Sequence record: OZ035730.1
Length of the DNA: 40,216 nucleotides
Origin: Kayfunavirus CLBP1
Reading direction: 5' to 3' (one strand)
Shown piece after piece: positions 1 through 30,337 of this stretch. The notes under the pieces are model-generated. The model saw only the letters and a program-made list of their open reading frames with translations, made no database searches and was not told the DNA's origin. Both the position numbers and the translations under genes were made by a program. Positions within the stretch are counted from its first letter, which is position 1, and each line of letters opens with the position of its first letter.

Positions 1-29
1 TACAAAACGATTAAAGGAGGAGGTAAAAC

Positions 30-293
30 ATGACGCAGATGGACTTAGAGAAGTTCCTCTTAATGCTAGATACTGAACGTGCTCGACTCATGCTGCAAGA
101 CCTGCGGGATGACTCTAAGCGTTCACCTCAGCTTTACAACGCCATTGAGAAGCTACTGGCTCGTCACAACTTCGTGCTAAGCAAGGTGTCTGTTGACGAG
201 AAGACGCTCGCTGATATGGAGGCCCTGAACGCAGAGTACGATAAGGTGCTCTCCGCTACGGAAGATAATGACACTGGGTATGGAGTGCAATAA
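30..293 (+). CDS. Small terminase subunit (T7 gp18-like, DNA maturation protein A)
   Basis: 87-aa ORF with SD GGAGGAGG upstream; translation MTQMDLEKFLLMLDTERARLMLQDL...RSPQLYNAIEKLL resembles T7 gp18 as I recall it; lies between the holin and the spanins as in T7. Confidence 0.8.
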   Translation: MTQMDLEKFLLMLDTERARLMLQDLRDDSKRSPQLYNAIEKLLARHNFVLSKVSVDEKTLADMEALNAEYDKVLSATEDNDTGYGVQ

Positions 294-302
294 ATCTCTT
301 AA

Positions 303-352
303 GTGTTAGACTCAAGGTCATTACTGTATGTAGTGGCCTTTATGGTTAACAC
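303..352 (+). promoter_or_regulatory. RNase III-type processing hairpin (R18.5-like), copy 1 of 3
   Basis: Upper stem AAGGUCAUUAC (313-323) pairs with GUAGUGGCCUU (329-339) including two G.U pairs, loop UGUAU; lower stem GUGUUA (303-308) with UAACAC (347-352). Same element recurs at 9753 and 16839 with compensatory changes. Confidence 0.6.
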
Positions 353-403
353 TAACTAGTGGAGGAGACTCTACGTGAAATCTGATAAACCGGGAGGGCA
401 CCT

Positions 404-856
404 ATGCTCGAATTTCTAAAGAGAGCGGCTCCGTGGTTACTCGCAGCAGTGATGTTTGCTGGGGGCTACCACACCGCTAACAATAAGTGGGAGGCTAAGG
501 TCAATGCAGAATACACCTCGAATCTTAAGGCATCGGAGGATACAAGGCTTGCTGTCCAAGCTGAAGTCAACAAAGTGTCCAAACGGTTTCAGGACGAAAT
601 GTCCTCGCTGGAAGGCAGCACTGATAGGATTATTGCTGACCTTCAGTCTGACAATAAGCGGTTGCGCATCCGAGTCAAACCTACGAGTGGAACCACGCAA
701 AGTGACGGTCGATGCGTCATTGATGGTTACGCCGAACTTGACGAACGAGATGCTAAACGTCTTATCGCCATCGGACTGAAAGGGGACTCTTGGATTAAAG
801 CACTACAGGATACTATTCGAAAACTTCAACAAGACAAGGAGAAAGACAATGGGTAA
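404..856 (+). CDS. Rz-like i-spanin (T7 gp18.5-like)
   Basis: 150 aa; SD GGGAGGG upstream; N-terminal hydrophobic segment LKRAAPWLLAAVMFAGG; motifs LEGSTDRIIADLQSDNKRLRIRVK and ELDERDAKRLIA match remembered T7 gp18.5. Confidence 0.85.
   Translation: MLEFLKRAAPWLLAAVMFAGGYHTANNKWEAKVNAEYTSNLKASEDTRLAVQAEVNKVSKRFQDEMSSLEGSTDRIIADLQSDNKRLRIRVKPTSGTTQSDGRCVIDGYAELDERDAKRLIAIGLKGDSWIKALQDTIRKLQQDKEKDNG
504..779 (+). CDS. Rz1-like o-spanin lipoprotein (gp18.7-like) embedded in +1 frame of gp18.5
   Basis: Embedded ORF contains hydrophobic stretch ALIGLLLTFSLTISGC with lipobox-like LTISGC followed by ASE; first ATG at 504 has SD GGGAGG. Track ORF 456 starts on TTG; true start uncertain. Confidence 0.6.
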   Translation: MQNTPRILRHRRIQGLLSKLKSTKCPNGFRTKCPRWKAALIGLLLTFSLTISGCASESNLRVEPRKVTVDASLMVTPNLTNEMLNVLSPSD

Positions 857-1640
857 TATTATTACTTTGAAAACTGACGTAGTTTGGCATTTTGCTACTG
901 GTACACCCTCTGGACTGAAGAACGCATCCGGTCACTTGTTATCTGGTACAATATACGTGAAAGTCCCAGCTAACGCCGAGTCTACAAGGATTACACTAAG
1001 CGACGGTACGTCTGCTACTGGTAATTTCTCCGATGGTGGCGGCTGGCCTCTACAATCAGGCAGTGTACGTCTGGAAGTGGTTGGTAACACAGAAGACGAC
1101 TTCCTTATTCTTAAAGTCACCAAGCTGAATGACAGTGGCGTCGGACTTGTTAAGGTAGAGTATACTTATCGGGAGTCACGTCCTGTATCCCACGCTGAGT
1201 ATTCTCTGGATACCTTCAACTGGTCAGGAACCCAAGTGTGTGCGGCTGGTCAGTTCACTAACCTAATGACTCTACCTTTAGTGAAGGGAGTGGATAGCGG
1301 CGTCGTTACTATCTCCGAAGGAAAGATGCTGTTCCCAGCTAAAGAGGGACTCAGTAGTGTAAACTTCGTCGTTCGGTTCGCTGGTGAGTTCCCTACAGCC
1401 TCAGCTCATAAGTGGCGATTGCAGCTTCGTAGACCAGATAACACTACCCTATCTTCCGTGACGGACACAGATGACCAGCAGTCATTCACCATTCGTGAGG
1501 CAGCCATCCATAGCTACATAGCTAATACAGACGACCCGTTCGTTACTACTGGCATCATGCTTGGCATTGAAGTTACCGGGTCTGAGGACCTTACTCTGTC
1601 CTCCCTGACTGTTCGCGTTGACTGCATCTTTAACTCTTAA
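849..1640 (+). CDS. Hypothetical protein (263 aa), no T7 counterpart at this position
   Basis: ATG with SD AAGGAG 7 nt upstream, overlaps gp18.5 stop by 8 nt, ends 12 nt before the large terminase start; phage-like codon usage; Ser/Thr/Gly-rich, no TM segment, no recognisable motif. Confidence 0.65.
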
Positions 1641-1651
1641 GAGGTGAAGCA

Positions 1652-3415
1652 TTGAGTAAAGACTTAGTGGCGCGTCAGGCGCTAATGACTGCACGTATGA
1701 AGGCAGACTTCGTGTTCTTCCTGTTCGTCCTGTGGAAAGCTCTGTCACTCCCAGTCCCGACTCGCTGTCAGATTGACATGGCGAAGAAACTATCGGCTGG
1801 GGACAACAGGCGCTTCATCCTACAGGCGTTCCGTGGTATAGGGAAGTCCTTCATTACGTGTGCCTTCGTTGTCTGGAAGCTATGGAACAACCCAGACTTG
1901 AAGTTCATGATTGTGTCTGCCTCAAAGGAACGAGCCGATGCTAACTCCATCTTCATCAAGCGTATCATCGACCTCATGCCTCAGCTTCGGGAACTCAAAC
2001 CTAAGCAGGGACAGCGAGATGCGGTTATCAGCTTCGACGTTGGACCAGCCAAGCCAGACCACTCACCTTCGGTTAAGTCAGTTGGTATCACAGGTCAGTT
2101 GACTGGTAGTCGTGCTGACATCTTGATTGCCGATGACGTAGAGGTTCCGAACAACTCAGCGACTCAGGCTGCACGAGACCGTCTGTCAGAGCTTGTGAAA
2201 GAGTTCGACGCTATCCTGAAGCCGGGAGGTACAATCATCTATCTGGGTACTCCTCAGAACGAGATGACCTTGTATCGTGAGCTGGAAGGCCGTGGGTACA
2301 CCACTACTATCTGGCCTGCTCGTTATCCACGCGACAGGAAGGACTGGCAGTCTTACGGCGACCGTCTGGCACCGATGCTTCAGGCAGAGCTTGAAGAGGA
2401 CCCTGAGGCCTTCTACTGGCGTCCGACCGATGAAGTTCGCTTCGACGATACTGACCTGAAGGAACGTGAGCTGTCCTATGGTAAAGCTGGCTTCGCTCTA
2501 CAGTTCATGCTTAACCCGAACCTGAGTGATGCCGAGAAGTACCCTCTGAAGCTCCGTGACCTTATCGTAGCAGACTTGGACCCAGCATCCAGCCCAATGG
2601 TCTACCAATGGTTGCCTAACCCTCAGAACAAGCGTGAGGACGTTCCTAACGTTGGACTCATGGGCGACTCATACCACACGTACCAGACTGTAGGTTCTGC
2701 CTTCAGTTCGTACACCCAGAAGATTCTGGTCATTGACCCTAGCGGTCGTGGTAAGGATGAAACTGGTTATGCGGTACTGTATCAGCTCAACGGCTACATC
2801 TTCGCTATGGAAGTCGGAGGTATGCGTGGTGGTTATGAAGACTCTACTCTGGAAGCGCTAGCTAAGATTGGTCGTAAGTGGAAGGTCAACGAATACGTCA
2901 TTGAGGGTAACTTCGGTGATGGTATGTACCTTGAGCTATTCAAGCCTGTAGCGGCCCGTATCCATCCTGCGGCTGTAACTGAAGTGAAGAGTAAGGGTCA
3001 GAAAGAACTCCGCATCTGTGACGTTCTGGAGCCTATCATGGGGTCTCACAGACTTATCGTCAACGCTGCTGCTATCGTCCAAGACTATCAGACAGCCGCT
3101 GATAAGGATGGTGTTCGTAACCCTATCTACTCTCTCTTCTACCAGATGACACGTATCTCTCGTGAACGCGGAGCCTTGGCACACGATGACCGACTTGATG
3201 CGCTGGCTATCGGTGTACAGTTCTTCGTTGAGTCTATGGCTAAGGATGCCAACAAAGGCGAACGTGAAGTCACTGAGGAGTGGCTGGAGGAACAGATGGA
3301 GAACCCACGGAAAGGCTTCGAGTCCATCCACACTGAGTTCTGGGACAATGGGGTCCGGGTAACTCACAATACGGACGACGAGCTGGGACTAGGGGCTTAC
3401 GTTACGTTCCACTAG
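1652..3415 (+). CDS. Large terminase subunit (T7 gp19-like, DNA maturation protein B)
   Basis: 587 aa; TTG start with SD GAGGTG; long collinear match to T7 gp19 ([103 protein letters not shown]). Confidence 0.95.
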
Positions 3416-3505
3416 CTGAATAACTATAGGCGAAAACTGAATTAATAAGCAGTTAGTAACCTATAGTTACTACCAGTCTAACCTACTGTTTTACAAGGAG
3501 TTTGG

Positions 3506-3528
3506 ACTTAACTATCACTATAGGGAAG
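3506..3528 (+). promoter_or_regulatory. Phage RNAP promoter (phiOR-like)
   Basis: ACTTAACTATCACTATAGGGAAG, exact match to the core repeated 11 times; +1 G at 3523; position after gene 19 as T7 phiOR. Confidence 0.75.
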
Positions 3529-3708
3529 ACCCCCGGTTACTTATAGTATTACTGTAGTGAATATACATATGCAGACTTTATGCAAGACCTTAGGAGGCAG
3601 ACTCAGAGTTCTTACCTAAGGCTTGCACCGATGGAAGGAGGGTGATATTAATCATAATCCCTCCAATACAGATAGTCACCGACCATAGATACAGGAGGTA
3701 TGTAGCAT

Positions 3709-3867
3709 ATGGAAAAGACCAAAGCTGTACTTAAAGCTCTGGCGACCAATCGAGCTACATACAGGTTTCTTGCTGCTGTTCTACTTGCTGCTGGCGTTAC
3801 TGCTGGAAGTAAGTGGGTCGGGTGGGTCGAGACTCTCGTATGTTCTCTGGTGTCTGAGTGTAATTAA
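3709..3867 (+). CDS. Small hydrophobic protein (gp19.5-like by position)
   Basis: 52 aa hand-translated MEKTKAVLKALATNRATYRFLAAVLLAAGVTAGSKWVGWVETLVCSLVSECN; strong SD AGGAGG 8 nt upstream; downstream of the phiOR-like promoter as T7 gene 19.5. Confidence 0.5.
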   Translation: MEKTKAVLKALATNRATYRFLAAVLLAAGVTAGSKWVGWVETLVCSLVSECN

Positions 3868-4104
3868 CGCAATCATGGTAACAATCAACGAAAGCAAGAC
3901 CTAAGGTCAGTTCATAGCTGACGCTACTCTACTGACCTTAGCTACTGTAGTCAAGGACTTTAGGTAACACCTTAAGAGAAGCTCACTTAGGGTCATCCTA
4001 CTGATTGGTCTATCCTAGTGTCGCCTGACCTACGGTCCTTGACCTACAGTGGCTGTGGCCTACAGTAGTGACGATGAGTTTTGGACCAAAAGTTTGAGAC
4101 CACA

Positions 4105-4295
4105 TCTCACAGTTCAAGAACCTAAAGTCTCCCCATAGGCCCTCTTTCAGTCCAGACCAAAGGCCCTACCCCAGTCTATCATAAGGTTGGACCGATGGTC
4201 AAGACGTTAGGTCGACGATAGGTTGAGGCTATGGCTTAGGGAAGGACGATAGGTTGGGACTATTGGTCTTCTTTGAGTCTCTATCTGTATAACCA
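4105..4295. repeat. Probable physical genome terminus and terminal-repeat region (one collapsed copy)
   Basis: TCTCACAGTTCAAGAACCTAAAGTCTCCCCATAGG at 4105 closely resembles the first bases of the T7 left end; GTCTCTATCTGTA near 4280 resembles the end of the T7 terminal repeat. Boundaries are approximate. Confidence 0.4.
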
Positions 4296-4440
4296 TAGGT
4301 CCTACAACCATAGGTCTAACAACCTACAGTCTCACTAACCTACAGTCACAACCATAAGACACTGACATCCTACAGTCATAGACATACAGCTAATAGACAC
4401 AAAGCCATAGACTTAAGGTCTAAGACATGTTAGTCAAAGA
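4296..4440. repeat. Array of short imperfect direct repeats (ACCATAGGTC / ACCTACAGTC family)
   Basis: Tandem-like recurrences AACCATAGGTCCTACAACCATAGGTCTAACAACCTACAGTCTCACTAACCTACAGTCACAACCATAAGAC; positional analogue of the CCTAAAG repeats after the T7 terminal repeat. Confidence 0.5.
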
Positions 4441-4694
4441 CTATATCCTCTTAGTCACTATGGGGCCGACGATAGCTTAATCAATATTATTTCAAATTAC
4501 CTATTGACTATATGTCCAGACTATGGCCTAATAGCTTCCGTCAACACGACACGGCAGTAAACGCTAGGTAACTAGCAACGACTCACCGAGATGGTGACTC
4601 ACAGTAGGTCAGGACGATAGGTTGAATGGTCTAGCCAGTACGGAAGATTGCAGAAGGAACTAAGCGTACCGACCTCAGAGCTGAAAGAAAGTAG

Positions 4695-4723
4695 TTGACA
4701 AGTAGTAAGACTTAACGTAGTAT
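4695..4723 (+). promoter_or_regulatory. Host sigma70 early promoter (T7 A3-like)
   Basis: TTGACA (4695-4700), 17-nt spacer, TAGTAT (4718-4723); downstream GTACCACAT resembles the T7 A3 promoter region. Confidence 0.6.
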
Positions 4724-4808
4724 GTACCACATCAACGAGAAACAATCCGGTAAAGTGCAATATATAAGGTGGTGCAATGGAGCAACGCCTATTAATGAGG
4801 GTAGCATC

Positions 4809-5042
4809 ATGATCAACCAAATCAAAACTACTAAATCAAATGTTAACGGCAACGTTTCTCACTTTATCGGTGATAACGAAAGAGGCACACCATACGCCGC
4901 CGTAACCGTGCAACCAAATGGCGATTATTGGTTTACCGTGTATGGATCATACTCTTTTGGACGTCCGGCGCATGATAAGATCTTGCAAGCGGTTAAGCCT
5001 ACAGGGAAGAATATTACAGCAGAAAAGTTTTATAAAAAGTAG
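4809..5042 (+). CDS. Hypothetical small protein (77 aa), AT-rich early gene upstream of ocr
   Basis: ATG with GAGG 7 nt upstream; MINQIKTTKSNVNGNVSHFIGDNERGTPYAAVTVQPNGDYWFTVYGSYSFGRPAHDKILQAVKPTGKNITAEKFYKK; visibly more AT-rich than the flanking genes. Track start 4722 overlaps the promoter -10 and has no SD. Confidence 0.5.
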   Translation: MINQIKTTKSNVNGNVSHFIGDNERGTPYAAVTVQPNGDYWFTVYGSYSFGRPAHDKILQAVKPTGKNITAEKFYKK

Positions 5043-5122
5043 CTTGCTTTGTGCGATCTGTTAACTTATAGCGGCCTGACTGATAGTCACTAACACATAC
5101 TTAACTTTGAGAGGATATAACT

Positions 5123-5611
5123 ATGGAACGTAACGCTAACGCATACTATGAGCTGCTGGCTGCAACCGTTGAAGCATTTAACGAGCGTATTCAGTACGAC
5201 GAAATAGCTGAAGGCGATGACTACCACGATGCGCTGCATGAAGTCGTAGACGGTCAGGTCCCGCACTATTACCACGAGATTTTCACGGTGATGGCTGCTG
5301 ATGGTATAGACCACGAGTTTGAGGACGCTGGGCTGATGCCTGAGACCAAGGACGTAACGCGTATACTGCAAGCTCGCATCTATGAGGCACTGTATAACGA
5401 TGTGTCTAATAGCTCGGATGTAGTCTGGTTCGAGGGCGAATACTGGGTGGTTGATGCTGAGACAGGGGCAATCATTGAGCAGGAGGGATCACTTGAGGAA
5501 GCTATTACATGCGCTAAAAAATTCTATCCGATAGGTCGCCACCTGAAGGTCGAGGACATCAACGATAACGTAGTGTTCGACCCTGCGGCTGCTGAAGAGG
5601 ACTGCGAGTGA
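5123..5611 (+). CDS. ocr: Ocr-like anti-restriction DNA mimic (gp0.3-like) with C-terminal extension
   Basis: N-terminal ~95 aa match remembered T7 Ocr ([64 protein letters not shown]); acidic; 162 aa versus 117 in T7. Confidence 0.8.
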
Positions 5612-5757
5612 TGGTAACTTATGGTATCTGCCAGTACCACGTCACCAACGCCCGGCTTATGGTCCAGACCGGGCAGTTAACCCATGACGCGGCTATGCGT
5701 CACCTGAAGGCGGTCTACGAGGGACGCAAGCGCATACACGACAGTGAGGATAAGTAA
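5611..5757 (+). CDS. Hypothetical early small protein (48 aa)
   Basis: Hand-translated [48 protein letters not shown]; ATG overlaps ocr stop (TGATG). Confidence 0.3.
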   Translation: MVTYGICQYHVTNARLMVQTGQLTHDAAMRHLKAVYEGRKRIHDSEDK

Positions 5758-5759
5758 AC

Positions 5760-5885
5760 ATGTGCCAGATAACTTATAGCAGTGAACAGGCGTTCTACGA
5801 TGGGTGCTACGAGATGATGAAGCGTGGGGCTTGCTACATAGCTAATCACCAAAGCCTGACCATAACGCTTACAGGTGGGTACTGA
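5760..5885 (+). CDS. Hypothetical early small Cys-containing protein (41 aa)
   Basis: Hand-translated MCQITYSSEQAFYDGCYEMMKRGACYIANHQSLTITLTGGY; GAGGA 9 nt upstream. Confidence 0.3.
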   Translation: MCQITYSSEQAFYDGCYEMMKRGACYIANHQSLTITLTGGY

Positions 5886-5955
5886 GTGATAGACGAGAGG
5901 TCATCGACTGATAGGTGGCCTCAAAGATTACCACTTGCATTAATAGGAGTTAACT

Positions 5956-6123
5956 ATGAAATTTACAGTCATCGCACTTTACGTAACCATTATTCTATCC
6001 TGGCTAACGGCGGTACTCATTGATGGGAACGCATTACGACTAGGCTGGCTGGCAGTGGACATTATATTCTCTCCGGTAGGGGTAGTGCGCGGCATCTTGA
6101 TGTGGATTGGACTGGCGGGATAA
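5956..6123 (+). CDS. Hypothetical small membrane protein (55 aa)
   Basis: SD AGGAG 6 nt upstream; MKFTVIALYVTIILSWLTAVLIDGNALRLGWLAVDIIFSPVGVVRGILMWIGLAG, two hydrophobic helices. Confidence 0.5.
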   Translation: MKFTVIALYVTIILSWLTAVLIDGNALRLGWLAVDIIFSPVGVVRGILMWIGLAG

Positions 6124-6126
6124 ACT

Positions 6127-6324
6127 ATGATAGCTGCACTATTGATAGCCATAGGCTATGGGCTTATCGCCTACGTGCTGGTGAGAGACATTAACAAGGC
6201 GCGTAAAGTCTACAAATTAAACTATGTACGTCTGGGTCGCTGGACTGTACGTCAACCTAACGGGCGATTCATGCGCAACTTAGCGAACGTCTGGGATATA
6301 GCAACACTTGGGAGCAAACTGTAA
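6127..6324 (+). CDS. Hypothetical small membrane-anchored protein (65 aa)
   Basis: N-terminal hydrophobic helix MIAALLIAIGYGLIAYVLV then basic region; tightly packed after the preceding ORF. Confidence 0.45.
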   Translation: MIAALLIAIGYGLIAYVLVRDINKARKVYKLNYVRLGRWTVRQPNGRFMRNLANVWDIATLGSKL

Positions 6325-6650
6325 TGAACAAGTCATACGGGATTAATCTGGTACACTCTATGGACGCAGACATGCAAATGTTAAGCCTACTGGCTACCGG
6401 GTATCGTCACGGAACGTCAAGTCACTCCGCACGTCAACAGCAGGAGCGGGACCGTGTACTACAGGCACGACTCCGGGCTGAGGGCCATAAGTCCGAACTG
6501 ATGTGTCTGGCGTATGGTGGACGACCAATCACTGATGATGGTAAACTTCTGGTCTCAGGCTGGAAGGCGATAGACCAACGGTCAACAATCCAGCACACGA
6601 CTCATGGTGACTTCAGTCATCTTCACGCTAACCCACTGATATTAAAGTGA
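6324..6650 (+). CDS. Hypothetical early protein (108 aa)
   Basis: ATG overlaps preceding stop (TAATG); occupies the slot where T7 has gene 0.7 but is far shorter and has no kinase motifs. Confidence 0.45.
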   Translation: MNKSYGINLVHSMDADMQMLSLLATGYRHGTSSHSARQQQERDRVLQARLRAEGHKSELMCLAYGGRPITDDGKLLVSGWKAIDQRSTIQHTTHGDFSHLHANPLILK

Positions 6651-6655
6651 TTCTG

Positions 6656-6678
6656 ACTTAACTATCACTATAGGACTC
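6656..6678 (+). promoter_or_regulatory. Phage RNAP promoter immediately upstream of the RNAP gene
   Basis: ACTTAACTATCACTATAGGACTC, exact core; +1 G at 6673, 75 nt upstream of the gene 1 ATG. Confidence 0.75.
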
Positions 6679-6747
6679 AAGGTCTAAGACTCCAAGTGAA
6701 AGACCAAAGAGACTTTAAGTGAAAGACTAATAACAAGGACTTTAAGT

Positions 6748-9429
6748 ATGAGCGTCATCTCTATTGACAAACACGACTTCTCTGATGTGTCGAACGCCAT
6801 TGAGCCGTTTAACCTGCTGGCTGACCACTACGGGCAAGACCTTGCAGTCAAACAGCTTCAGCTTGAGCATGAGGCATACACTGAAGGCGAGCGACGTTTC
6901 ATCAAGAACCTTGAGCGCCAGACTGAGCGCGGAGAACTGGCAGACAATCAGGTCGCCAAGCCTTTGATGCAGACTCTGGTCCCTAAGATTGCGCAAGCCG
7001 TCAAGGAGTGGCATGAAGGTCAAGACGGGAAGCTGTCAACCTCTCGTCCGAGCGTAGCGTTCACCATGTTGAGCACTGAAGAGAAGGCCGTCAAGGACCG
7101 CTCTCTGCGCATCTCCTGTGAGTCTGCTGCGGTTATCATACTGAAGGTCATCCTCTCCAAGCTGGTCAAGCCTGAAGGGATACCGATTACACCTATGGCC
7201 TCAGCGATAGGTCGCACACTTGAGGATGAAATCCGATTCGGTCGCATTCGTGACAAGGAGAAGGAGCACTTCAAGAAGGTGATAGCTGATAACCTGAACA
7301 AGAGAGCCGGGGCATCATACAAGAAAGCCTACATGCAAGCGGTCGAGACATCCATGCTGGAGCAGGGTCAACTGGAAGATGCGTGGGGAACTTGGAGTCC
7401 GACAGAAGCGGTACACGTTGGCATCAAGATGCTTGAGATTGTCATACAGTCCACACAACTGGTCGAGCTTAAGCGTTACGGTGCTGGCAATGCAGCTGCT
7501 GACGTTGAGATGGTCCACCTGTCAGACTTCTGGGTCAAGAAGATGACACAACGTGGGTTCAGCCTTGCGGGTATTGCGCCAGTCTACCAGCCTTGCGTCG
7601 TTCCACCTAAACCGTGGACTGGTGTCGTAGGAGGTGGGTACTGGGCCAAAGGTCGCAGACCACTACCACTGATTCGCTTAGGGTCTAAGTCTGCGGTGGC
7701 GCGTTACGAAGACGTGTACATGCCTGAAGTCTATGACGCTGTGAATATCATCCAGAATACACCTTGGAAAGTTAACAAGAAGGTACTGGAAGTGGTGAAC
7801 ACGGTCGAGAAGCTGAACAACACGCCTATTGACGACATCCCTCAGATGGAGCCACTGAAGCCTGAAGACTATGCGGGTGAGACTGAAGAGGAACTCAAGG
7901 CATGGAAGAAGGCTGCTGCTGGTATCTACCGCCGAGAGAAGGCCCGGCAGTCACGCAGATTGTCACTGAGCTTTATCGTTAACCAAGCGAACAAGTTTTC
8001 TCAGTTCAAGGCCATCTGGTTCCCGTACAACATGGACTGGCGCGGTCGCGTCTACGCTGTGCCGATGTTCAACCCTCAGGGTAACGACATGCAAAAGGGT
8101 CTACTGACTCTGGCAGTCGGCAAGCCTATTGGTGCCGATGGATTTAAATGGCTGAAGGTACACGGTGCAAACTGTGCGGGTGTCGATAAAGTCACCTTCG
8201 AGGAGCGCATCAAGTGGGTGGAAGACAACCACGACAACATCATGGCTGCTGCTAAGGCACCGATGGACAGCATTGAGTGGTGGGGCAAGTTAGACTCTCC
8301 GTTCTGCTTCCTTGCGTTCTGCTTCGAGTATGCTGGCGTAATGCACCACGGATTGTCTTACTCCTGCTCGCTTCCGATAGCGTTCGATGGGTCCTGCTCT
8401 GGGATTCAGCACTTCAGCGCGATGCTTCGTGACCACATCGGTGGACATGCAGTAAACCTGACGCCTTCCGGTAAGGTCCAAGACATCTACCGCATCGTGT
8501 CTGACCGCGTTGAGGAGGAGCTTAAAGTCCTGCTGGTTAACGGCACGGACAACGAGATGGTAACTCACGAGGACAAGAAAACTGGTGAGATTACCGAACG
8601 TCTCAAGCTGGGGACACGAGAGCTGGCCCGGCAGTGGCTGACTTACGGTATGTCACGCAAGGTTACTAAGCGCTCAGTCATGACTCTGGCCTACGGGTCG
8701 AAAGAGTACGGCTTCGCAGACCAAGTTTATGAGGACATCGTGATGCCAGCGATTGACTCAGGGTCTGGCGCTATGTTCACCGAGCCAAGCCAAGCGTCTC
8801 GCTTCATGGCTAAGATGATTTGGGAAGCTGTGAGTGTGACCGTAGTTGCTGCGGTTGACGCGATGAAGTGGCTTCAAGGTGCTGCCAAGCTGCTGGCTGC
8901 TGAAGTGAAGGACAAGAAGACTGGTGAAATCCTGAAGCCTTGCCTTCCGGTACACTGGGTCACGCCTGATGGTTTCCCGGTATGGCAGGAATACCGCAAG
9001 AAGGATACCACTCGTCTGAACCTGATGTTCTTAGGGTCCTTCAACCTTCAACCTACGGTCAACAAAGGTACGAAGAAAGAGCTGGATAAGCACAAGCAGG
9101 AGTCAGGCATTAGCCCAAACTTCGTCCACTCACAAGATGGTAGCCACCTACGCAAGACTGTAGTCCACACGCATCGCAAGTATGGCGTGATGTCATTCGC
9201 AGTGATTCACGATAGCTTCGGGACCATCCCGGCTGACGCTGAATATCTGTTCCGTGGTGTCCGTGAGACGATGGTTGAGACATACCGCGACAACGATGTG
9301 CTGCTTGACTTCTACGAGCAGTTTGAATGCCAGCTTCATGAGAGCCAGCGCGACAAGTTGCCTGAGCTACCGAAGAAAGGTAAACTGAATATCGAAGACA
9401 TCTTGTCTTCAGATTTTGCATTCGCTTAA
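6748..9429 (+). CDS. Single-subunit DNA-dependent RNA polymerase (T7 gp1-like)
   Basis: 893 aa; conserved T7 RNAP family motifs throughout (PMFNPQGNDMQKGLLT, HGANCAGVDK, DGSCSGIQHFSAM, SFGTIPADA, C-terminal FAFA). Confidence 0.97.
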   Translation: MSVISIDKHDFSDVSNAIEPFNLLADHYGQDLAVKQLQLEHEAYTEGERRFIKNLERQTERGELADNQVAKPLMQTLVPKIAQAVKEWHEGQDGKLSTSRPSVAFTMLSTEEKAVKDRSLRISCESAAVIILKVILSKLVKPEGIPITPMASAIGRTLEDEIRFGRIRDKEKEHFKKVIADNLNKRAGASYKKAYMQAVETSMLEQGQLEDAWGTWSPTEAVHVGIKMLEIVIQSTQLVELKRYGAGNAAADVEMVHLSDFWVKKMTQRGFSLAGIAPVYQPCVVPPKPWTGVVGGGYWAKGRRPLPLIRLGSKSAVARYEDVYMPEVYDAVNIIQNTPWKVNKKVLEVVNTVEKLNNTPIDDIPQMEPLKPEDYAGETEEELKAWKKAAAGIYRREKARQSRRLSLSFIVNQANKFSQFKAIWFPYNMDWRGRVYAVPMFNPQGNDMQKGLLTLAVGKPIGADGFKWLKVHGANCAGVDKVTFEERIKWVEDNHDNIMAAAKAPMDSIEWWGKLDSPFCFLAFCFEYAGVMHHGLSYSCSLPIAFDGSCSGIQHFSAMLRDHIGGHAVNLTPSGKVQDIYRIVSDRVEEELKVLLVNGTDNEMVTHEDKKTGEITERLKLGTRELARQWLTYGMSRKVTKRSVMTLAYGSKEYGFADQVYEDIVMPAIDSGSGAMFTEPSQASRFMAKMIWEAVSVTVVAAVDAMKWLQGAAKLLAAEVKDKKTGEILKPCLPVHWVTPDGFPVWQEYRKKDTTRLNLMFLGSFNLQPTVNKGTKKELDKHKQESGISPNFVHSQDGSHLRKTVVHTHRKYGVMSFAVIHDSFGTIPADAEYLFRGVRETMVETYRDNDVLLDFYEQFECQLHESQRDKLPELPKKGKLNIEDILSSDFAFA

Positions 9430-9441
9430 CAGGAGATAGTT

Positions 9442-9657
9442 ATGAAATTTGCACACAAGCAGGCTGGTGTTAATGGTGGGACTCAAATCGTGACCGTAAC
9501 AGAACACAACGGCAAGGGTCTGGTGAAGACCACTGTCATCCCAACTGAGATGTCCAAGCAGCTTAACGTCCCGTTCAAGACTCTTGTATATCTGGTAGAG
9601 TCCAGCCACGAGAAGTACCTAAAGGACGCAGTGTCAAAACTGGAGCAGACCAAATGA
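9442..9657 (+). CDS. Hypothetical protein (71 aa) between RNAP and the phi1.1-like promoter
   Basis: SD AGGAGA 7 nt upstream of ATG; no recognised motif; no T7 counterpart recalled here. Confidence 0.5.
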   Translation: MKFAHKQAGVNGGTQIVTVTEHNGKGLVKTTVIPTEMSKQLNVPFKTLVYLVESSHEKYLKDAVSKLEQTK

Positions 9658-9732
9658 CAGACCTACAGTTACTGGCCTTGTGGCTAGGAGCACTCGCAGT
9701 ATTCACTTTAATCCAACGCAGAAGAGGTTAAC

Positions 9733-9755
9733 CTAAACTATCACTATAGGATTAG
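9733..9755 (+). promoter_or_regulatory. Phage RNAP promoter (phi1.1-like)
   Basis: CCTAAACTATCACTATAGGATTA; +1 G at 9750. Confidence 0.8.
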
Positions 9756-9798
9756 ACTCAAGGTCATGACTCAAAGTCGTGGCCTTCATGATTAACCC
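9753..9798 (+). promoter_or_regulatory. RNase III-type processing hairpin (R1.1-like), copy 2 of 3
   Basis: AAGGUCAUGAC (9761-9771) pairs with GUCGUGGCCUU (9777-9787), loop UCAAA; flanks TTAGACTC / CATGATTAACC shared with copies 1 and 3. Confidence 0.6.
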
Positions 9799-9828
9799 TA
9801 AATAAACACTACTGGAGATTTAACCGTA

Positions 9829-9999
9829 TGTATCAGAACACTATCAACTTCGAGCGCATCCGTGAACGTCAGCAGACTGAAGGTTACATTCCTAAGGGCC
9901 GCAAGCTGAACAAAACTAAACGTGGTGGTGGTATCAAGGGCGCTTTCCGAAACGCTGAAGGTAAAGACTCTCTGGTTAACCAAGAGAAATACTTCGTAG
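9829..9999 (+). CDS. gp1.1-like small basic protein (56 aa)
   Basis: Hand-translated MYQNTINFERIRERQQTEGYIPKGRKLNKTKRGGGIKGAF...; GRKLNKTKR matches remembered T7 gp1.1. Confidence 0.55.
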
Positions 10000-10011
10000 G
10001 AGCATAACCAA

Positions 10012-10275
10012 ATGGGCCGACTTTATAGTGGCAACCTCAACGCTTTCAAAGCAGCGTGTAGCAGGCTTTATCAGTTAGACTTCGCTGTTATATCTCAGGA
10101 GTTTCAAGACAATGTGTCTCGCCAAGAGTGTATGAAACTCAGGGTGGAGGACCGAGCTGGCAACATCTTCGCGCTTGAGACCTTCGCACACTACGATGAA
10201 GACGTGCTGTATAATACTGCAACCGACTACCTCAACGGTCTCGCTGACCAACTCGATACATGGAGCAAAGCATAA
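10012..10275 (+). CDS. gp1.2-like host dGTPase inhibitor
   Basis: 87 aa; MGRLYSGNLNAFKAA...LRVEDRAGN...HYDEDVLYN matches remembered T7 gp1.2. Confidence 0.8.
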   Translation: MGRLYSGNLNAFKAACSRLYQLDFAVISQEFQDNVSRQECMKLRVEDRAGNIFALETFAHYDEDVLYNTATDYLNGLADQLDTWSKA

Positions 10276-11327
10276 TGACAACTATTAAAACCAACCCACA
10301 CCGCGCTGTAGATTACTCTGAGTCTGGCGTTAAGAAGGCACTGGAAGCAGCCGGGTCTCTGGAAGCTGAAGTGAAGTACGATGGTGTCCGGTTGAATCTT
10401 CCGGTATTCCCTACTGGTGAGACTCAATGGTTGAGCCGTGAGTCTAAACATCTCCCAGCACTTGAGTGGCTGTCAGTCCTTACCAACATCGACAACATCG
10501 TTGAGGACCAGCAAAAAGCCAGCGACTGGCGATGGTTCCTGAAGCAGGCTGGCTACGAAGGCACTGGCCTGATGATTGACGGTGAGGTCATGGTAAAGGG
10601 AGTGGACTTCAATACGTCTTCAGGTCTCATCCGAACGAAGTGGGTAAATCAAAAGAACTTTGAGTTTTCCACTGGTGAGCACTGGGGTAAGAGCTGGAAG
10701 AAAGAGAATCTACCGTTCTGTCTTGACAAGAAGTACATCAAGGTAGTCGTCTACGGTATCGTGGACCTTAACGTCATCCTCGACCCCAAGGCCGAAGGTC
10801 CTATCCATAGCGTCACCCGCCTGAAGGCCGAAGCTATCGTCCCTCTCCTCCAGAAATACTTCCCGGAAATCGAATGGGTTCTTTCGGAGTCACACACGGT
10901 CTTTGACCTTGAGTCGCTCCAATCCCTGTACGAAGAGAAGCGAGCAGAAGGTCACGAAGGACTGGTGGTGAAAGACCCACTGGGCAAGTGGAAGCGTGGC
11001 AAGAAGTCAGGCATGTGGAAAATGAAGCCGAGCGAAGAGGCAGACGGCCATGTTGTTCGTCCGGTATGGGGAACGGAAGGTCTAGCCAACGAAGGTCTGG
11101 TAATTGGCTTTGACGTTATGCTTGAGAACGGGATGGAGGTCTCCGCAACTAACATTAGTCGCGCCCTTATGTCCGAGTTCACCGAGAACGTCAAGTCGGA
11201 CCCAGATTACTACAAAGGGTGGGCCTGTCAGATTACCTACATGGAGGAGACACCAGATGGAAGTTTGCGACATCCGTCATTCGACCAATGGCGAGGTACT
11301 GAGGACAATCCTACAGTCAAGATTTAA
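10275..11327 (+). CDS. ATP-dependent DNA ligase (T7 gp1.3-like)
   Basis: Start MTTIKTNP mirrors T7 ligase MMNIKTNP; adenylation motif KYDGVR; ATG overlaps gp1.2 stop. Confidence 0.9.
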   Translation: MTTIKTNPHRAVDYSESGVKKALEAAGSLEAEVKYDGVRLNLPVFPTGETQWLSRESKHLPALEWLSVLTNIDNIVEDQQKASDWRWFLKQAGYEGTGLMIDGEVMVKGVDFNTSSGLIRTKWVNQKNFEFSTGEHWGKSWKKENLPFCLDKKYIKVVVYGIVDLNVILDPKAEGPIHSVTRLKAEAIVPLLQKYFPEIEWVLSESHTVFDLESLQSLYEEKRAEGHEGLVVKDPLGKWKRGKKSGMWKMKPSEEADGHVVRPVWGTEGLANEGLVIGFDVMLENGMEVSATNISRALMSEFTENVKSDPDYYKGWACQITYMEETPDGSLRHPSFDQWRGTEDNPTVKI

Positions 11328-11361
11328 GGTTGACCGGACGGCTCCTTCTGGAGTCGCCAAC

Positions 11362-11718
11362 ATGAAGGGTAAGCACTTAGGCTATCGACGCAAGGACGGC
11401 TACTGGGTTATAAGCACAACAAAGGGTCAACTCCTTGCTCACAGGGTAGTCTGGGAACTAACTCATGGTCCGATACCTGAAGGAATGGTGATTGACCATA
11501 TAAACCGCGACCCTTCTGATAACCGCATTGAGAACTTACGATGTGTAACCCAGGCAGTGAACCTAACAAACGTTCCCGTCCGTAGCCACTGCAAGTCTGG
11601 TGAGAAGTATGTGAACTTTGAGCCAAGGACTGGTAGATGGCAACTTCGGATAAAGCGTAAGTCATATGGTACGTTCGACACCATAGCTGAGGCGGTAGCC
11701 TTGAGAGATTCATTATGA
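11362..11718 (+). CDS. HNH homing endonuclease with AP2-like DNA-binding tail (free-standing)
   Basis: MKGKHLGYRRKDGYWVIS...LAHRVVWELTHGPIPEGMVIDHINRDPSDNRIENLRCVTQAVN...YVNFEPRTGRWQLRIKRKSYGTFDTIAEAVALRD; HNH core plus AP2-type motif. Upstream part of track ORF 11104 overlaps the ligase and is not counted. Confidence 0.75.
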   Translation: MKGKHLGYRRKDGYWVISTTKGQLLAHRVVWELTHGPIPEGMVIDHINRDPSDNRIENLRCVTQAVNLTNVPVRSHCKSGEKYVNFEPRTGRWQLRIKRKSYGTFDTIAEAVALRDSL

Positions 11719-11722
11719 CGTC

Positions 11723-11756
11723 AACCCAGTGGTCTTAGGACTGCTGGGTTTCTTTG
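11723..11756 (+). terminator. Hairpin plus U-tract (intrinsic terminator-like)
   Basis: CCCAGUGGUC (11725-11734) pairs with GACUGCUGGG (11739-11748), 10 bp with two G.U, loop UUAG, followed by UUUCUUUG. Confidence 0.5.
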
Positions 11757-11777
11757 CGTCTAGGCCACCAGCTAGAC

Positions 11778-11800
11778 CCTAAGCTATCACTATAGGACAA
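11778..11800 (+). promoter_or_regulatory. Phage RNAP promoter (phi1.5/1.6-like)
   Basis: CCTAAGCTATCACTATAGGACAA; +1 G at 11795; one mismatch to consensus at about -13. Confidence 0.7.
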
Positions 11801-11824
11801 CCATCAACTCAAAGGAGAGACTCA

Positions 11825-12085
11825 ATGTCTAAGAACTTAATGTTTAATCGCTTTACGTCTACCTTCCACCTGTCCAACAATCCGTTCGCCTGCATCAAGC
11901 GCAACGAGAAGGTAGGGTTCTTCGGCAAGGTCGTGAAGCTGTCACCTACAGTCTACGCGCTGTTGACTCCGGGCAAGATTGAAGAGGCACGCCAGAAGAA
12001 AGACTCAGCTGTGCCTGTGGTCTACACTAAGTGGCCTCGCCTGCGTCTGGTCGTAGAGTTCGCGAAGGAGGCCTACAATGACTGA
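11825..12085 (+). CDS. Hypothetical protein (gp1.6-like by position)
   Basis: 86 aa; SD AAAGGAGAGA upstream; assignment by synteny only. Confidence 0.55.
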   Translation: MSKNLMFNRFTSTFHLSNNPFACIKRNEKVGFFGKVVKLSPTVYALLTPGKIEEARQKKDSAVPVVYTKWPRLRLVVEFAKEAYND

Positions 12086-12575: not shown

Positions 12576-12734
12576 ATGAGCATTGAAGAAAAGAAATACA
12601 TCGTGGAGCTTGAGGGTCGCATTCAGTCCTTCGAGGTTCCGGTGTACGCAAAGTCTCTTGAAGAGGCTACCCTGAAGTCCCAAGAGTATGAGGATGCAGG
12701 GTTTGTGGTAGGACGGATTCGTCCTGAGACCTAA
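12576..12734 (+). CDS. Host RNA polymerase inhibitor (T7 gp2-like)
   Basis: SD GGAAGGAG upstream of ATG 12576; [33 protein letters not shown] matches remembered T7 Gp2. Track ORF start 12513 is upstream of the likely start. Confidence 0.75.
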
Positions 12735-13946: not shown

Positions 13947-14170
13947 TGACTCAGGAAGTTAAGGTCGTTCGTCAGCGTCTGACCATTGATAAAATCCCGG
14001 TAGGCTATGCGTTTATCGTCCACGGTAAGCCGGGTGAAGTGTACGTGAAGATTAGTAACTCTCACGTCTTCAACCATAAGTTACTCCAGATGCACACCAC
14101 GGATGCTAACCGCTTCCAACGTCATCTGAACCTCGTAGCTGTAGAGCTGGTGGTGTATGATGGTGAGTAA
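13943..14170 (+). CDS. Hypothetical protein (75 aa) inserted between endonuclease I and lysozyme
   Basis: ATGA overlap with gp3 stop, strong SD AAAGGAG; 3' end overlaps the lysozyme start; no T7 counterpart recalled. Confidence 0.55.
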   Translation: MMTQEVKVVRQRLTIDKIPVGYAFIVHGKPGEVYVKISNSHVFNHKLLQMHTTDANRFQRHLNLVAVELVVYDGE

Positions 14171-14618
14171 GGTGCAATTCAACCCACGGTCCCGGACTGA
14201 CGCTATCTTCGTTCACTGTAGTGCAACCAAACCGTCTCAGGACATCGGGGTAGACACTATCCGCATGTGGCACAAGCAGCAGGGATGGCTGGACGTAGGC
14301 TACCACTTCGTCATCAAGCGAGATGGTACTGTGGAAGAGGGTCGCCCGGTAGATGTAGTGGGGTCCCACGTTAAGGATTGGAACTCCCGGTCCGTAGGCG
14401 TCTGCCTTGTTGGTGGAATCGACGCTAAGGGCAAGTTTGAAGCCAACTTCACGCCTGCTCAGATGAACGCTCTACGAAACAAGCTGGCTGAACTGAAGGC
14501 CCTGTACCCTCAGGCAGACATCAAGGCTCACCACGATGTAGCACCAAAGGCTTGCCCAAGTTTTGACTTACAACTCTGGCTGTCTACCAATGAACTGGTA
14601 ACTTCCGACCACGGTTAA
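14157..14618 (+). CDS. Lysozyme / N-acetylmuramoyl-L-alanine amidase (T7 gp3.5-like)
   Basis: VQF...TDAIFVHCSATKPSQ...WLDVGYHF...KRDGTVE...GVCLVGGID...FTPAQM...HHDVAPKACPSFDL...NELVTSD matches remembered T7 lysozyme. Confidence 0.93.
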   Translation: MMVSKVQFNPRSRTDAIFVHCSATKPSQDIGVDTIRMWHKQQGWLDVGYHFVIKRDGTVEEGRPVDVVGSHVKDWNSRSVGVCLVGGIDAKGKFEANFTPAQMNALRNKLAELKALYPQADIKAHHDVAPKACPSFDLQLWLSTNELVTSDHG

Positions 14619-14642: not shown

Positions 14643-14858
14643 ATGATTAAACTTATTGAATTTCTTGGTCGTCTGGTGGTGCGTGGTTATCGTCGTGCTG
14701 CGGTACTGGAGCGAAAGGTAGAAAAGAAGACTGCTGACGGTGCGGCTGATGCTGCTGCTCTGGCTGACAAGCTGACCATCGCGTCACTGGAAGCGGGCAT
14801 GAAGGCACGTCAAGCTGACACCAAAGCTGACCAGTTGGCCCAGTTCTTCAAAGCCTAA
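14643..14858 (+). CDS. Hypothetical protein (71 aa), Ala/Lys-rich
   Basis: SD AAAGGAGAA upstream; occupies the slot of T7 gene 3.8 but has no HNH motif. Confidence 0.5.
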   Translation: MIKLIEFLGRLVVRGYRRAAVLERKVEKKTADGAADAAALADKLTIASLEAGMKARQADTKADQLAQFFKA

Positions 14859-14876
14859 ACTATCACCTTAGGGATG
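14854..14876 (+). promoter_or_regulatory. Phage RNAP promoter, variant core (phi4-like)
   Basis: CCTAAACTATCACCTTAGGGATG; two changes in the -4 to -2 region; +1 G at 14871. Confidence 0.55.
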
Positions 14877-16836: not shown

Positions 16837-16838
16837 GT

Positions 16839-16882
16839 CTAGACTCAAGGTCATTCACATTGAGTGGCCTTTATGATTAGAC
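16839..16882 (+). promoter_or_regulatory. RNase III-type processing hairpin (R4.7-like), copy 3 of 3
   Basis: AAGGUCAUUCA (16847-16857) pairs with UGAGUGGCCUU (16861-16871), loop CAU; compensatory base-pair changes relative to copies 1 and 2. Confidence 0.6.
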
Positions 16883-16899
16883 TAAACGGAGGATTAACC

Positions 16900-17301
16900 A
16901 TGTTTGATTGCATTGAGTGGACCGGGTGTCGAGATAGTTTCGGCTACGGTATGCGAAAGGTCAACGGGAAGGTCCGTAGACTGCATCTGATAGCCTTCGA
17001 GGAGGCGAATGGTCCGATACCAGAGGGAATGGTCGTGAGGCACAAATGCGACAACCCAGCGTGCTACAATCCAGAACACTTGGAGCTGGGGACAAGGGCT
17101 GAGAACAATCACGATAGAGACATTAGAGGTCGAACCGCTAAAGGCGTGCGACATGGAAGCTCTAAGCTTACACCTGAAATAGTACAAGAGGCCAAGGTGC
17201 TTTACGCAGGAGGTGGCTGGACTCACCGCTCCTTAGGTAAGAAGTATGGAGTGGGTCACCGCACACTGGCTAGAGCAATTGGAGGAGAAACATGGACTTA
17301 A
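16900..17301 (+). CDS. HNH endonuclease (free-standing, between primase/helicase and DNA polymerase)
   Basis: ATG 16900 with SD GGAGGA 6 nt upstream; HKCDNPACYNPEHLELGTRAENNHD motif. Track start 16864 lies inside the RNase III hairpin. Confidence 0.75.
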   Translation: MFDCIEWTGCRDSFGYGMRKVNGKVRRLHLIAFEEANGPIPEGMVVRHKCDNPACYNPEHLELGTRAENNHDRDIRGRTAKGVRHGSSKLTPEIVQEAKVLYAGGGWTHRSLGKKYGVGHRTLARAIGGETWT

Positions 17302-25593: not shown

Positions 25594-25616
25594 ACTAAAC
25601 TATCACTATAGGGAGA
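25594..25616 (+). promoter_or_regulatory. Phage RNAP promoter (phi10-like, drives major capsid gene)
   Basis: ACTAAACTATCACTATAGGGAGA; +1 G at 25611. Confidence 0.85.
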
Positions 25617-30298: not shown

Positions 30299-30337
30299 AT
30301 AGGCCCTTTAAGTTATAATACTTTAAGAGGAGACTTT

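Follow-up and report, generated by a model that had tools for sequence, protein, structure and literature searches.

In T7 and T3, the gap equivalent to the one that holds the gene 1 promoter described here contains no phage promoter; it carries the minor host promoter C, which is weak, and the T3 record also marks the RNase III site R1 in it. Both phages have a rightward phage promoter farther upstream of gene 1, phiOL (405 in T7, 366-388 in T3), at some 2.6-2.8 kb from the gene, which is described as weakly used and as linked to polymerase-driven genome entry (PMC6171733). The first-pass annotation of the DNA analysed here stated that T7 gene 1 is transcribed only from host promoters; this is right in that no phage promoter adjoins the gene, but it is an oversimplification, because phiOL lies upstream of gene 1 in T7 and T3, in T7 co-oriented with it and 2.8 kb away.

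In the T7 autogene of Dubendorff and Studier (1991), gene 1 was reportedly placed under a T7 promoter, with autocatalytic expression as the outcome; this is said to have been an artificial plasmid construct for which lac repression and lysozyme were needed for tolerance. In the Pseudomonas phage LUZ100, a promoter with a mapped start, phi1, lies directly upstream of the single-subunit polymerase gene, and its authors propose that host polymerase primes expression and that a positive feedback loop follows; LUZ100 also has an integrase, and a MarR-like repressor that is thought to gate the promoter (PMC10134795). Upstream of the polymerase gene of the Vibrio phage phiA318, a predicted promoter, phi-A8, has likewise been read as autoregulation (PMC4099482). 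Moreover, a site orthologous to the one considered here is already annotated in related phages, as a "phi" promoter in EcoDS1 (NC_011042, 2244-2266) and as a "predicted promoter" in CR44b and CR8.

The window, that is, the whole stretch of 40,216 nucleotides that was analysed (OZ035730.1), is a rotated sequence of Escherichia phage CLB_P1, a K1F-like member of Kayfunavirus related to T7, and carries such a site immediately before gene 1 (Table 1). Re-reading of the sequence bore out its location as first proposed, the predicted start at G6673 lying 75 nt from the gene 1 ATG (6748-6750), while about 5-6 nt separate the TGA of gene 0.38 (6648-6650) from the first base of the promoter. The site has the organization of T7-group promoters, with the core CACTATAG at -7..+1, initiation at G and a specificity region at about -12..-8. 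Its description as an exact-consensus promoter holds for the published degenerate consensus CTWAACTATCACTATAGG (PMC13298934), to which the site conforms, but not more strictly, as its base at -14 is T, against A in 7 of the 10 family sites, and it has a GGA start of the middle-gene promoter type rather than the GGGAGA displayed by the capsid promoter at 25611.

Table 1. Features of the window relevant to transcription of gene 1.
Feature	Position in the window	Strand	Details
Right-end promoter, phiOR position	3506..3528	+	+1 at 3523
Two candidate early promoters of the host sigma-70 type	4504..4723	+	TTGACT at 4504; TTGACA-17-TAGTAT at 4695-4723
Gene 0.38, last early gene	6324..6650	+	ends in TGA just before the promoter
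Phage RNA polymerase promoter, -17..+6	6656..6678	+	ACTTAACTATCACTATA GGACTC; predicted start G6673
Predicted transcript 5' leader	6679..6747	+	35% GC, 45% A
Gene 1, single-subunit RNA polymerase	6748..9429	+	893 aa; 62-63% identity to T7 polymerase
Next promoter downstream	9732..9815	+	+1 at 9749; complete RNase III-type box GACTCAAGGTC...GTGGCCTTCATGATTA directly after
Feature	12576..12734	+	record 8306-8464 plus 4270 offset
Gene 3.5, lysozyme/amidase	14157..14618	+	record 9887-10348 plus 4270 offset

A search allowing up to three mismatches retrieved 10 sites in the window, every one of them on the + strand, intergenic and at a T7-like position, against 0.02 expected from shuffles. Scored with a leave-one-out profile built from the other nine, the gene 1 site reaches 31.7 bits and ranks seventh of the ten (family range 29.1-36.3). 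It shares all bases at -17..-1 with the right-end promoter, which lies ~580 bp before the physical genome end, itself at 4105 on the window. Homology maps the physical left end to position 4105 of the window, placing the gene 1 site ~2.57 kb from it and downstream of all early genes; a profile scan of 4105-6672 revealed nothing else scoring 11 bits or more, so the gene 1 site is the leftmost phage promoter, as it also is in EcoDS1, GW1 and CR8. The promoter module following gene 1 sits where T7 has phi1.1/R1.1. No terminator-like sites were detected on the + strand in 3300-12000, and hence none between promoter and gene 1; as in an autogene, a cognate promoter lies upstream of the polymerase gene, in the same orientation and with no terminator between them.

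Gene 1 upstream regions of close relatives were then compared, as the first-pass annotation had proposed, and a site in this position was present in 31 of the 31 related phages checked (Kayfunavirus and Caroctavirus). The comparison included 23 Kayfunavirus sequences (the window itself, IMG/VR loci, K1F and EcoDS1), and the same search yielded seven further GenBank phages with the site; in an eighth, SFP20, a variant core, CACTAGAGG, was read by eye. Distances from promoter to ATG are 75-81 nt in the compared Kayfunavirus sequences and, in CR8, 102 nt to the start codon used in the comparison. Among the 21 sequences sharing the same specificity, invariant columns amount to 87% in the promoter, 74% in gene 1, 59% in the leader and 32% in the 3' end of gene 0.38; the ribosome binding site of the leader is also conserved. 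Several sister lineages carry -2A, -2G or -3G, and they do so only at the gene 1 promoter. An exact-pattern scan of IMG/VR for the conserved ribosome-binding stretch returned mostly chance matches in unrelated contigs and added no diversity. On the sequences compared, a promoter before gene 1 is the rule in Kayfunavirus and Caroctavirus rather than something special to CLB_P1.

Promoter and polymerase also vary together. At positions 748, 756 and 758 of the specificity loop (T7 numbering) the residues of the window polymerase are N, N and Q, a combination that pairs with AACTA promoters. In the GW1 group the same positions are D/R/Q, as in T3, the promoters are of the AACCC type and the gene 1 site is AACCCTCACTATAGG; in CR8 the loop is K/Q/R, the promoters have GAAGGTA and the gene 1 site is GAAGGTACACTATAGG. 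In both cases the gene 1 site agrees with the other 10-11 promoters of its genome, having kept pace with two independent shifts in polymerase specificity. Biochemistry is available for a close relative, since the purified Ro45lw polymerase requires and uses ACTTAACTATCACTATAGGGA in vitro (PMC12272871). This sequence does not differ from the window gene 1 promoter at -17..+2, and the Ro45lw polymerase (locus L011) is 94% identical to that of the window, with N/N/Q at the three loop positions compared. The in vitro activity of the Ro45lw polymerase may be taken as no more than a proxy for initiation at the gene 1 site. Literature searches provided no usable transcript data for kayfunaviruses or K1F.

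In view of these features, the site probably functions as a middle-class (class II type) promoter for the single-subunit polymerase that the phage encodes, 75 nt before the gene of that enzyme. Host polymerase would start at the left-end sigma-70 promoters (~4504 and ~4695), which are orthologous to the annotated host promoters of EcoDS1 and presumably supply the earliest gene 1 transcripts, and would read through genes 0.15-0.38 into gene 1. The layout and the example of T7 suggest that the first polymerase mRNA is in this way host-made, and the sigma-70 sites would constitute a source of it independent of the phage promoter. No host-type promoter comparable to promoter C of T7 or to that of SP6 was found directly before gene 1 on the + strand in 5367-10000. 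Newly made phage polymerase would then meet the gene 1 promoter as its first cognate site and, as we infer for the situation in vivo, start at G6673, producing a leader that is rich in A, lacks structure and offers good ribosome binding (Shine-Dalgarno AAGGA at 6735-6739, 8 nt 5' of the ATG). Transcription from G6673 would cover gene 1 and later genes, no terminator-like site being present before the 9749 promoter. Polymerase synthesis would in that case become host-independent and self-reinforcing, even once the host enzyme has been shut off by the gene 2 protein; by analogy with T7, the feature at 12576..12734 would end host-driven transcription of gene 1. From then on, transcription from the gene 1 promoter probably also drives the entry of the remaining genome.

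Since a cognate, co-oriented promoter precedes gene 1 with no terminator between them, a self-amplifying loop is a reasonable inference, and positive feedback at gene 1 appears plausible. Its extent may be limited. The GGACTC start is of the weaker middle-gene type, and this, together with the lineage-specific -2A, -2G and -3G, means that the site could be weak and the feedback quantitatively small. Genes 2 and 3.5 are both present in the CLB_P1 record. In T7 the homologue of gene 3.5 is a polymerase-binding inhibitor, so that the lysozyme encoded here is a likely brake on any feedback loop. The GGA start, the -2/-3 variants of sister lineages and the lysozyme probably all restrain the loop, and lysozyme inhibition combined with a limited infection time may prevent real amplification. 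T7 has no such site, which is therefore dispensable for a T7-like life cycle.

The leftmost position of the site also fits a possible, although clearly less favored, explanation, in which an active promoter is retained chiefly as a substitute for the missing phiOL, extra polymerase being a by-product: as the first phage promoter entering the cell, it would let the fast phage polymerase pull the genome in and transcribe the middle genes. CLB_P1, EcoDS1, GW1 and CR8 have no promoter at the phiOL position, while T7-, T3- and K11-like phages show the reverse, with phiOL present and the gene 1 site absent, and the phiOL of T7 has itself been linked to polymerase-driven entry (PMC6171733). The gene 1 site does not lie where phiOL does, a few hundred bp from the left end and before the host early promoters. 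Against this explanation, gene 1 must enter and be expressed before its promoter can act, and the gain for entry would be modest because the next promoter is only 3 kb on. Local alignment of 6630-6760 with 4105-4760, bearing on the idea of a decayed phiOL, scored 48 against 31.4 +/- 4.7 for shuffles (maximum 47), a marginal value in a region rich in short repeats. A phiOL substitute is moreover compatible with feedback, which makes these two readings hard to separate.

A further proposal, which we consider unlikely, concerns RNA structure: in read-through RNA the promoter core would pair with an inverted copy in the leader, forming an RNase III type hairpin that replaces the R1 of T7/T3, while transcripts begun at 6673 would lack the 5' arm. 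In the window, AGTGA in the leader (6719-6723) is complementary to TCACT of the promoter core (6665-6669), and the predicted transcript from 6673 starts with GGACTCAAGGTC, in which GACTCAAGGTC represents the 5' half of the RNase III box of the T7 group. The window has complete boxes at roughly 305-370, 9750-9815 and 16838-16900, and the R1 of T3 is annotated in exactly the same gap. In the Ro45lw/Dev2/IME278 lineage, TATCACTAAAG is matched by CTTTAGTGATA in a perfect inverted repeat of 11 bp, one position of which is the lineage-specific -2A, and Kc166A has 7 bp. On the contrary, the window has 5 contiguous pairs only, the predicted folds of its leader and read-through region do not improve on those of shuffled sequences (z = 0.18 and -0.70) and support no claim of a structured RNA, the minimum-energy fold of the Ro45lw lineage pairs differently, and CR8 has no such repeat. 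The T7-group site consists of the box GACTCAAGGTC...GTGGCCTTTATGATTA within a long imperfect hairpin; the gene 1 leader has the 5' half of this box and lacks the canonical 3' half. An Rfam scan of 4000-10500 at E <= 1 gave no match. The inverted leader copy was also considered as a leftward promoter and rejected, its specificity bases at -17..-11 mismatching when the GenBank sequences were read by eye.

An extension of this idea, to which we attach little probability, would make the locus an expression switch, with the core as an arm of the inverted repeat, such that read-through and 6673-started mRNAs differ in folding or processing, and with promoter strength tuned by lineage at -2/-3; polymerase expression would then change in mode once the phage has taken over. 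The variants recorded at the gene 1 promoter are T, A and G at -2 and G at -3. If the switch were real, it would represent a natural, tunable autogene circuit in place of the host promoter C, RNase III site R1 and phiOL of T7/T3.

Equally improbable appears the suggestion that the promoter and the AT-rich region downstream are chiefly a replication origin, modeled on phi1.1A/B and phiOL of T7 with their adjacent AT-rich DNA. The 69 nt downstream have 35% GC, a value found in the bottom 2% of equally long windows, and in T3 the annotated primary origin immediately follows phi1.05, a promoter adjacent to gene 1. However, the leaders behind most other promoters of the genome are as AT-rich (33-39% GC), the stretch functions as a 5' UTR whose ribosome binding site is conserved, and a separate promoter, at 9749, is present at the canonical origin position immediately downstream of gene 1. 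Finally, a non-functional relic or chance resemblance is scarcely credible and was rejected on conservation, the site being more conserved than either flanking coding region, and on its co-variation with two independent changes of polymerase specificity, with just the 0.02 chance sites mentioned above to be expected.

Returning to the preferred reading, a working promoter for the phage's own polymerase, an active site would mean that K1F-like phages make their polymerase by a self-reinforcing loop, versus by the host enzyme only, as in textbook T7. Activity as predicted would also bear on the speed of takeover by therapy-candidate phages in cells with weak transcription, and on how polymerase/promoter pairs of the K1F type are used in synthetic circuits. 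Sister genomes already have the arrangement itself on record, and the concept of self-feedback has been published for other phages.

Comparison with the closest systems places the locus accordingly. EcoDS1 and K1F agree with CLB_P1 in all 23 nt of the site and in its 75-nt spacing. The Citrobacter phages CR44b and CR8 have the orthologous promoter upstream of gene 1, the preceding gene being 0.38 (0.42 in CR44b), and CR8 combines the same arrangement with its own promoter specificity. At this locus nothing of substance distinguishes EcoDS1, CR44b and CR8 from CLB_P1, whose record simply has no promoters, integrase or repressor annotated. The gene 1 promoter is real, ordinary for its genus and already known.

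Regarding more distant systems, the CLB_P1 site resembles phiOL of T7/T3 in being leftmost, rightward and upstream of gene 1, and either position would in principle allow the phage polymerase to transcribe the gene that encodes it. They differ in that phiOL is non-canonical, precedes the host promoters and stands ~400 bp from the genome end, with 2.6-2.8 kb between it and gene 1, while the CLB_P1 site scores within its family range and lies ~2.57 kb from the end, after the early genes and 75 nt from gene 1. As in LUZ100, a phage-specific promoter stands immediately before a single-subunit polymerase gene; unlike in LUZ100, the start is predicted, the promoter sequence is unrelated, and no integrase or repressor is annotated. 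The phi-A8 promoter of phiA318 is a prediction from a distant lineage and precedes a kinase-plus-polymerase pair, not directly gene 1. Like the T7 autogene, CLB_P1 has its polymerase gene behind its own promoter, but here the arrangement is natural and belongs to a lytic genome, in which runaway expression is harmless and lasts only minutes.

The putative phage promoter preceding the polymerase gene begins 6 nt beyond the point where gene 0.38 stops, with 75 nt separating it from the gene 1 ATG, and the sequence bears out the +1 at 6673 proposed in the first-pass annotation. When its 18-mer was searched for with up to three mismatches, 10 occurrences were found in the window, all on the + strand, with 0.02 expected from shuffled sequences. 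Nine of them occupy what we take to be roughly the positions of T7 phiOR, phi1.1, phi1.6, phi2.5, phi6.5, phi9, phi10, phi13 and phi17, the gene 1 site being the one member that T7 lacks. In leave-one-out profile scoring the gene 1 site reaches 31.7 bits (family range 29.1-36.3), and it is the leftmost phage promoter, the region 4105-6672 topping out at 10.3 bits. It starts with GGA, as middle-gene promoters do, the capsid promoter having GGGAGA, and carries T at -14 (relative to +1), where 7 of the 10 family sites have A. Its description as exact consensus thus holds for the published kayfunavirus consensus CTWAACTATCACTATAGG (PMC13298934), which accommodates it, but not for the exact majority consensus, owing to the T at -14 and the GGA start. 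Separately, a degenerate eleventh site resembling the family lies just upstream of gene 4; it reads CCTAAACTATCACCTTAGGGATG, scores 25 bits, has CACCTTAGG in place of CACTATAGG and probably has little or no activity.

Features of the window and of related loci (L-numbers denote gene 1 loci of related phages)
Feature	Position or loci	Strand	Remarks
Gene 1 promoter	6656-6678	+	ACTTAACTATCACTATA followed by GGACTC; predicted +1 = G6673
Promoter family, +1 positions	3523, 6673, 9749, 11795, 12747, 21781, 24602, 25611, 30293, 37576	+	
Degenerate promoter-like site	14854-14876		+1 would be 14871
Gene 1	6748-9429		893-aa single-subunit RNA polymerase, 62-63% identical to T7 polymerase
Sigma-70-type host promoter candidates	4504 and 4695-4723		counterparts of host promoters annotated in EcoDS1
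Complete T7-group RNase III boxes	about 305-370, 9750-9815, 16838-16900		GACTCAAGGTC...GTGGCCTT(T/C)ATG(A/G)TTA; 9750-9815 directly follows the promoter at 9749
-2A variant	L011-L013, L019, L020, L172-L174, L176, L177		includes Ro45lw/Dev2 lineage
-2G variant	L179 (SFP20)		CACTAGAGG
-3G variant	L178 (Kc166A)		
11-bp inverted repeat	L011, L172, L173, L174, L176, L177		about 35-90 nt upstream of gene 1
T7 record	phiOL 405; minor host promoter C 3113; gene 1 3171		
T3 record	phiOL 366-388; host promoter C 2883-2911; RNase III site R1 2908-2956; gene 1 2976		

Comparison of the regions upstream of gene 1 in close relatives located the promoter site in all the Kayfunavirus sequences compared and in Citrobacter phage CR8 (Caroctavirus). 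It lies 75-81 nt ahead of the ATG in all 23 Kayfunavirus sequences (the window, 20 IMG/VR loci, K1F and EcoDS1) and 102 nt upstream of the gene 1 start used for CR8, and 7 further GenBank kayfunaviruses also carry it; the variant core of SFP20, missed by pattern search, was identified by eye. In the 21 sequences of AACTA specificity, invariant columns make up 87% of the promoter, 74% of the gene 1 start, 59% of the leader, 32% of the final 300 nt of gene 0.38 and 25% of the 8 nt between it and the promoter. Several lineages depart from CACTATAGG at -2 or -3, and where a second promoter is visible (L011, L012, L019, L020) it retains CACTATAGG, the gene 1 promoter alone deviating; these variants may reflect tuning of promoter strength. 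In the available portion of the Ro45lw feature table (MK301532), the first regulatory feature comes after gene 1 (5483-5505) and none before it (PMC9866566). In the Ro45lw genome (locus L011) a -2A site nonetheless precedes gene 1 by 81 nt; promoter finders probably miss it because of the variant.

The site also varies together with the polymerase. At T7 positions 748, 756 and 758, within the specificity loop, the CLB_P1, K1F and Ro45lw enzymes have N, N and Q, that of the GW1 group D, R and Q, as in T3, and that of CR8 K, Q and R. The GW1-group gene 1 site, ATTAAACCCTCACTATA, resembles the 11 other sites of GW1, and that of CR8, AAGGAAGGTACACTATA, exactly matches the 10 further promoters annotated in CR8; by fitting each genome's own set, the gene 1 site has tracked at least two changes of polymerase specificity. 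Moreover, purified Ro45lw polymerase, 94% identical to that of CLB_P1, transcribes in vitro the minimal promoter ACTTAACTATCACTATAGGGA (PMC12272871), identical to the window site at -17..+2. Conservation, co-variation with the polymerase and this in vitro proxy are thus three lines of evidence for a functional site, the first two effectively excluding a chance match or relic.

Regarding its surroundings, 5800-7800 is 100% identical to CLB_P1 record KC109329.1 (Autographiviridae, Studiervirinae, Kayfunavirus, K1F group), of which the window is a rotated form (window position = record position + 4270; 1-4270 versus 4271-40216), 2 bases shorter, with a small indel near 38578. Neither begins at the physical end, the left one lying at 4105 judging from where the homologous EcoDS1 and K1F records begin. 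No terminator-like site was found on the + strand between 3300 and 12000, leaving the path clear both for host polymerase reading on into gene 1 and for phage polymerase crossing that gene from 6673. Genes 2 (host polymerase inhibitor) and 3.5 (lysozyme, T7 polymerase inhibitor) are both present in CLB_P1; gene 0.7 is absent from it and present in GW1 and CR8, so the promoter-before-gene-1 arrangement is independent of gene 0.7.

The best-supported reading is one of four steps, in which the polymerase would drive its own synthesis. Host polymerase would supply the initial gene 1 mRNA; the phage enzyme made from it would then initiate in vivo at 6673, the first promoter open to it, and transcribe gene 1 together with the genes beyond; polymerase synthesis would become self-reinforcing without the host enzyme; and transcription from 6673 would probably take over genome entry. 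Brakes on this loop would be the middle-class start sequence, the weakening changes of individual lineages (-2A in Ro45lw/Dev2, -2G in SFP20, -3G in Kc166A) and lysozyme.

As a rival or additional role, the gene 1 promoter may substitute in genome entry for phiOL, the leftmost T7/T3 promoter. In typical T7-, T3- and K11-like genomes the phiOL position, 2.5-2.9 kb before gene 1, holds a promoter, and none was found at that position in EcoDS1, GW1 or CR8. The left-end repeat region (4359-4441) shows marginal similarity to the promoter plus leader (6634-6704), with a local score of 48 (shuffles, 31.4 +/- 4.7, maximum 47), and shares with the leader the 12-mer AAGGTCTAAGAC (4415 and 6679); this could be a decayed phiOL copy or reflect the short-repeat arrays typical of T7-type ends. 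Service as a replication origin would be a further possible rival or additional role.

A processing hairpin particular to read-through transcripts, which alone would contain both arms, could also be envisaged. The Ro45lw/Dev2/IME278/SFPH2/P7124/CHRF_10022 lineage has a perfect 11-bp inverted copy of the promoter core (TATCACTAAAG / CTTTAGTGATA), its -2A included, reduced to 7 bp in Kc166A and to 5 bp in the window (TCACT 6665-6669 / AGTGA 6719-6723). The predicted transcript from 6673 also opens with the 5' half of a T7-group RNase III box (6675-6685), the 3' half being absent, which suggests a duplicated, decayed promoter-plus-site module or a remnant of R1, annotated here in T3. However, fold statistics lend the hairpin no support, the gene 1 leader showing no significant fold, and CR8 lacks the inverted copy. 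Sequence alone does not tell apart the hairpin, origin and phiOL-substitute roles. The leader itself has 35% GC and is rich in A (45%, which puts it in the top 0.09% of windows), with AAGGA 8 nt ahead of the ATG. It contains ACTTTAAG twice (6712-6719, 6739-6746), the gene 13 leader once (30320-30327); this motif is similar to TTAACTTTAAG in the leader of T7 gene 10, a known translation enhancer.

Returning to self-driven polymerase synthesis, the supposition that T7 has no equivalent promoter holds for the gap next to gene 1, its record listing phiOL farther upstream, and no cognate promoter was found near gene 1 in T7-, T3- or K11-like loci, a few contigs showing promoter-like sites 0.6-1.6 kb upstream. 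In seven K11-like Klebsiella phages (L041, L042, L043, L045, L050, L052, L066), a further site that reads AGATAACTATCACTATAGGTCTA, or nearly so, lies 56-57 nt past their own phiOL-type promoter (AATTAGG..CACTATAGGGAG), about 2.45-2.78 kb upstream of gene 1, its specificity bases being of K1F rather than K11 type. Kayfunavirus and Caroctavirus occupy the gap before gene 1 with a phage promoter, while SP6 (L180, 3310-3391) represents a third solution: its polymerase gene is immediately preceded by a sigma-70-type promoter close to consensus (TTGACT, 17 nt, TAAGAT), and none of the SP6-promoter patterns searched for matched upstream of the gene. In T7, T3, SP6, Kayfunavirus and Caroctavirus alike, this gap is thus a hot spot of regulation.

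The CLB_P1 record carries no mark at the gene 1 promoter, and its orthologues are entered as phage promoters in the records of EcoDS1 (2244-2266, gene 1 at 2336), CR44b and CR8 (3356-3378). The classic man-made counterpart of this arrangement is the engineered T7 autogene. The Sparklingdew paper lists a repeat of 18 bp where SPD_007 ends (3' end), SPD_008 being the RNA polymerase gene. For LUZ100, a promoter for its own polymerase gene was mapped and positive feedback proposed (PMC10134795), and for phiA318 both were predicted (PMC4099482). Together with the annotation in sister phages, these precedents indicate that the observation of a promoter before gene 1 is real but ordinary for the genus and already known.
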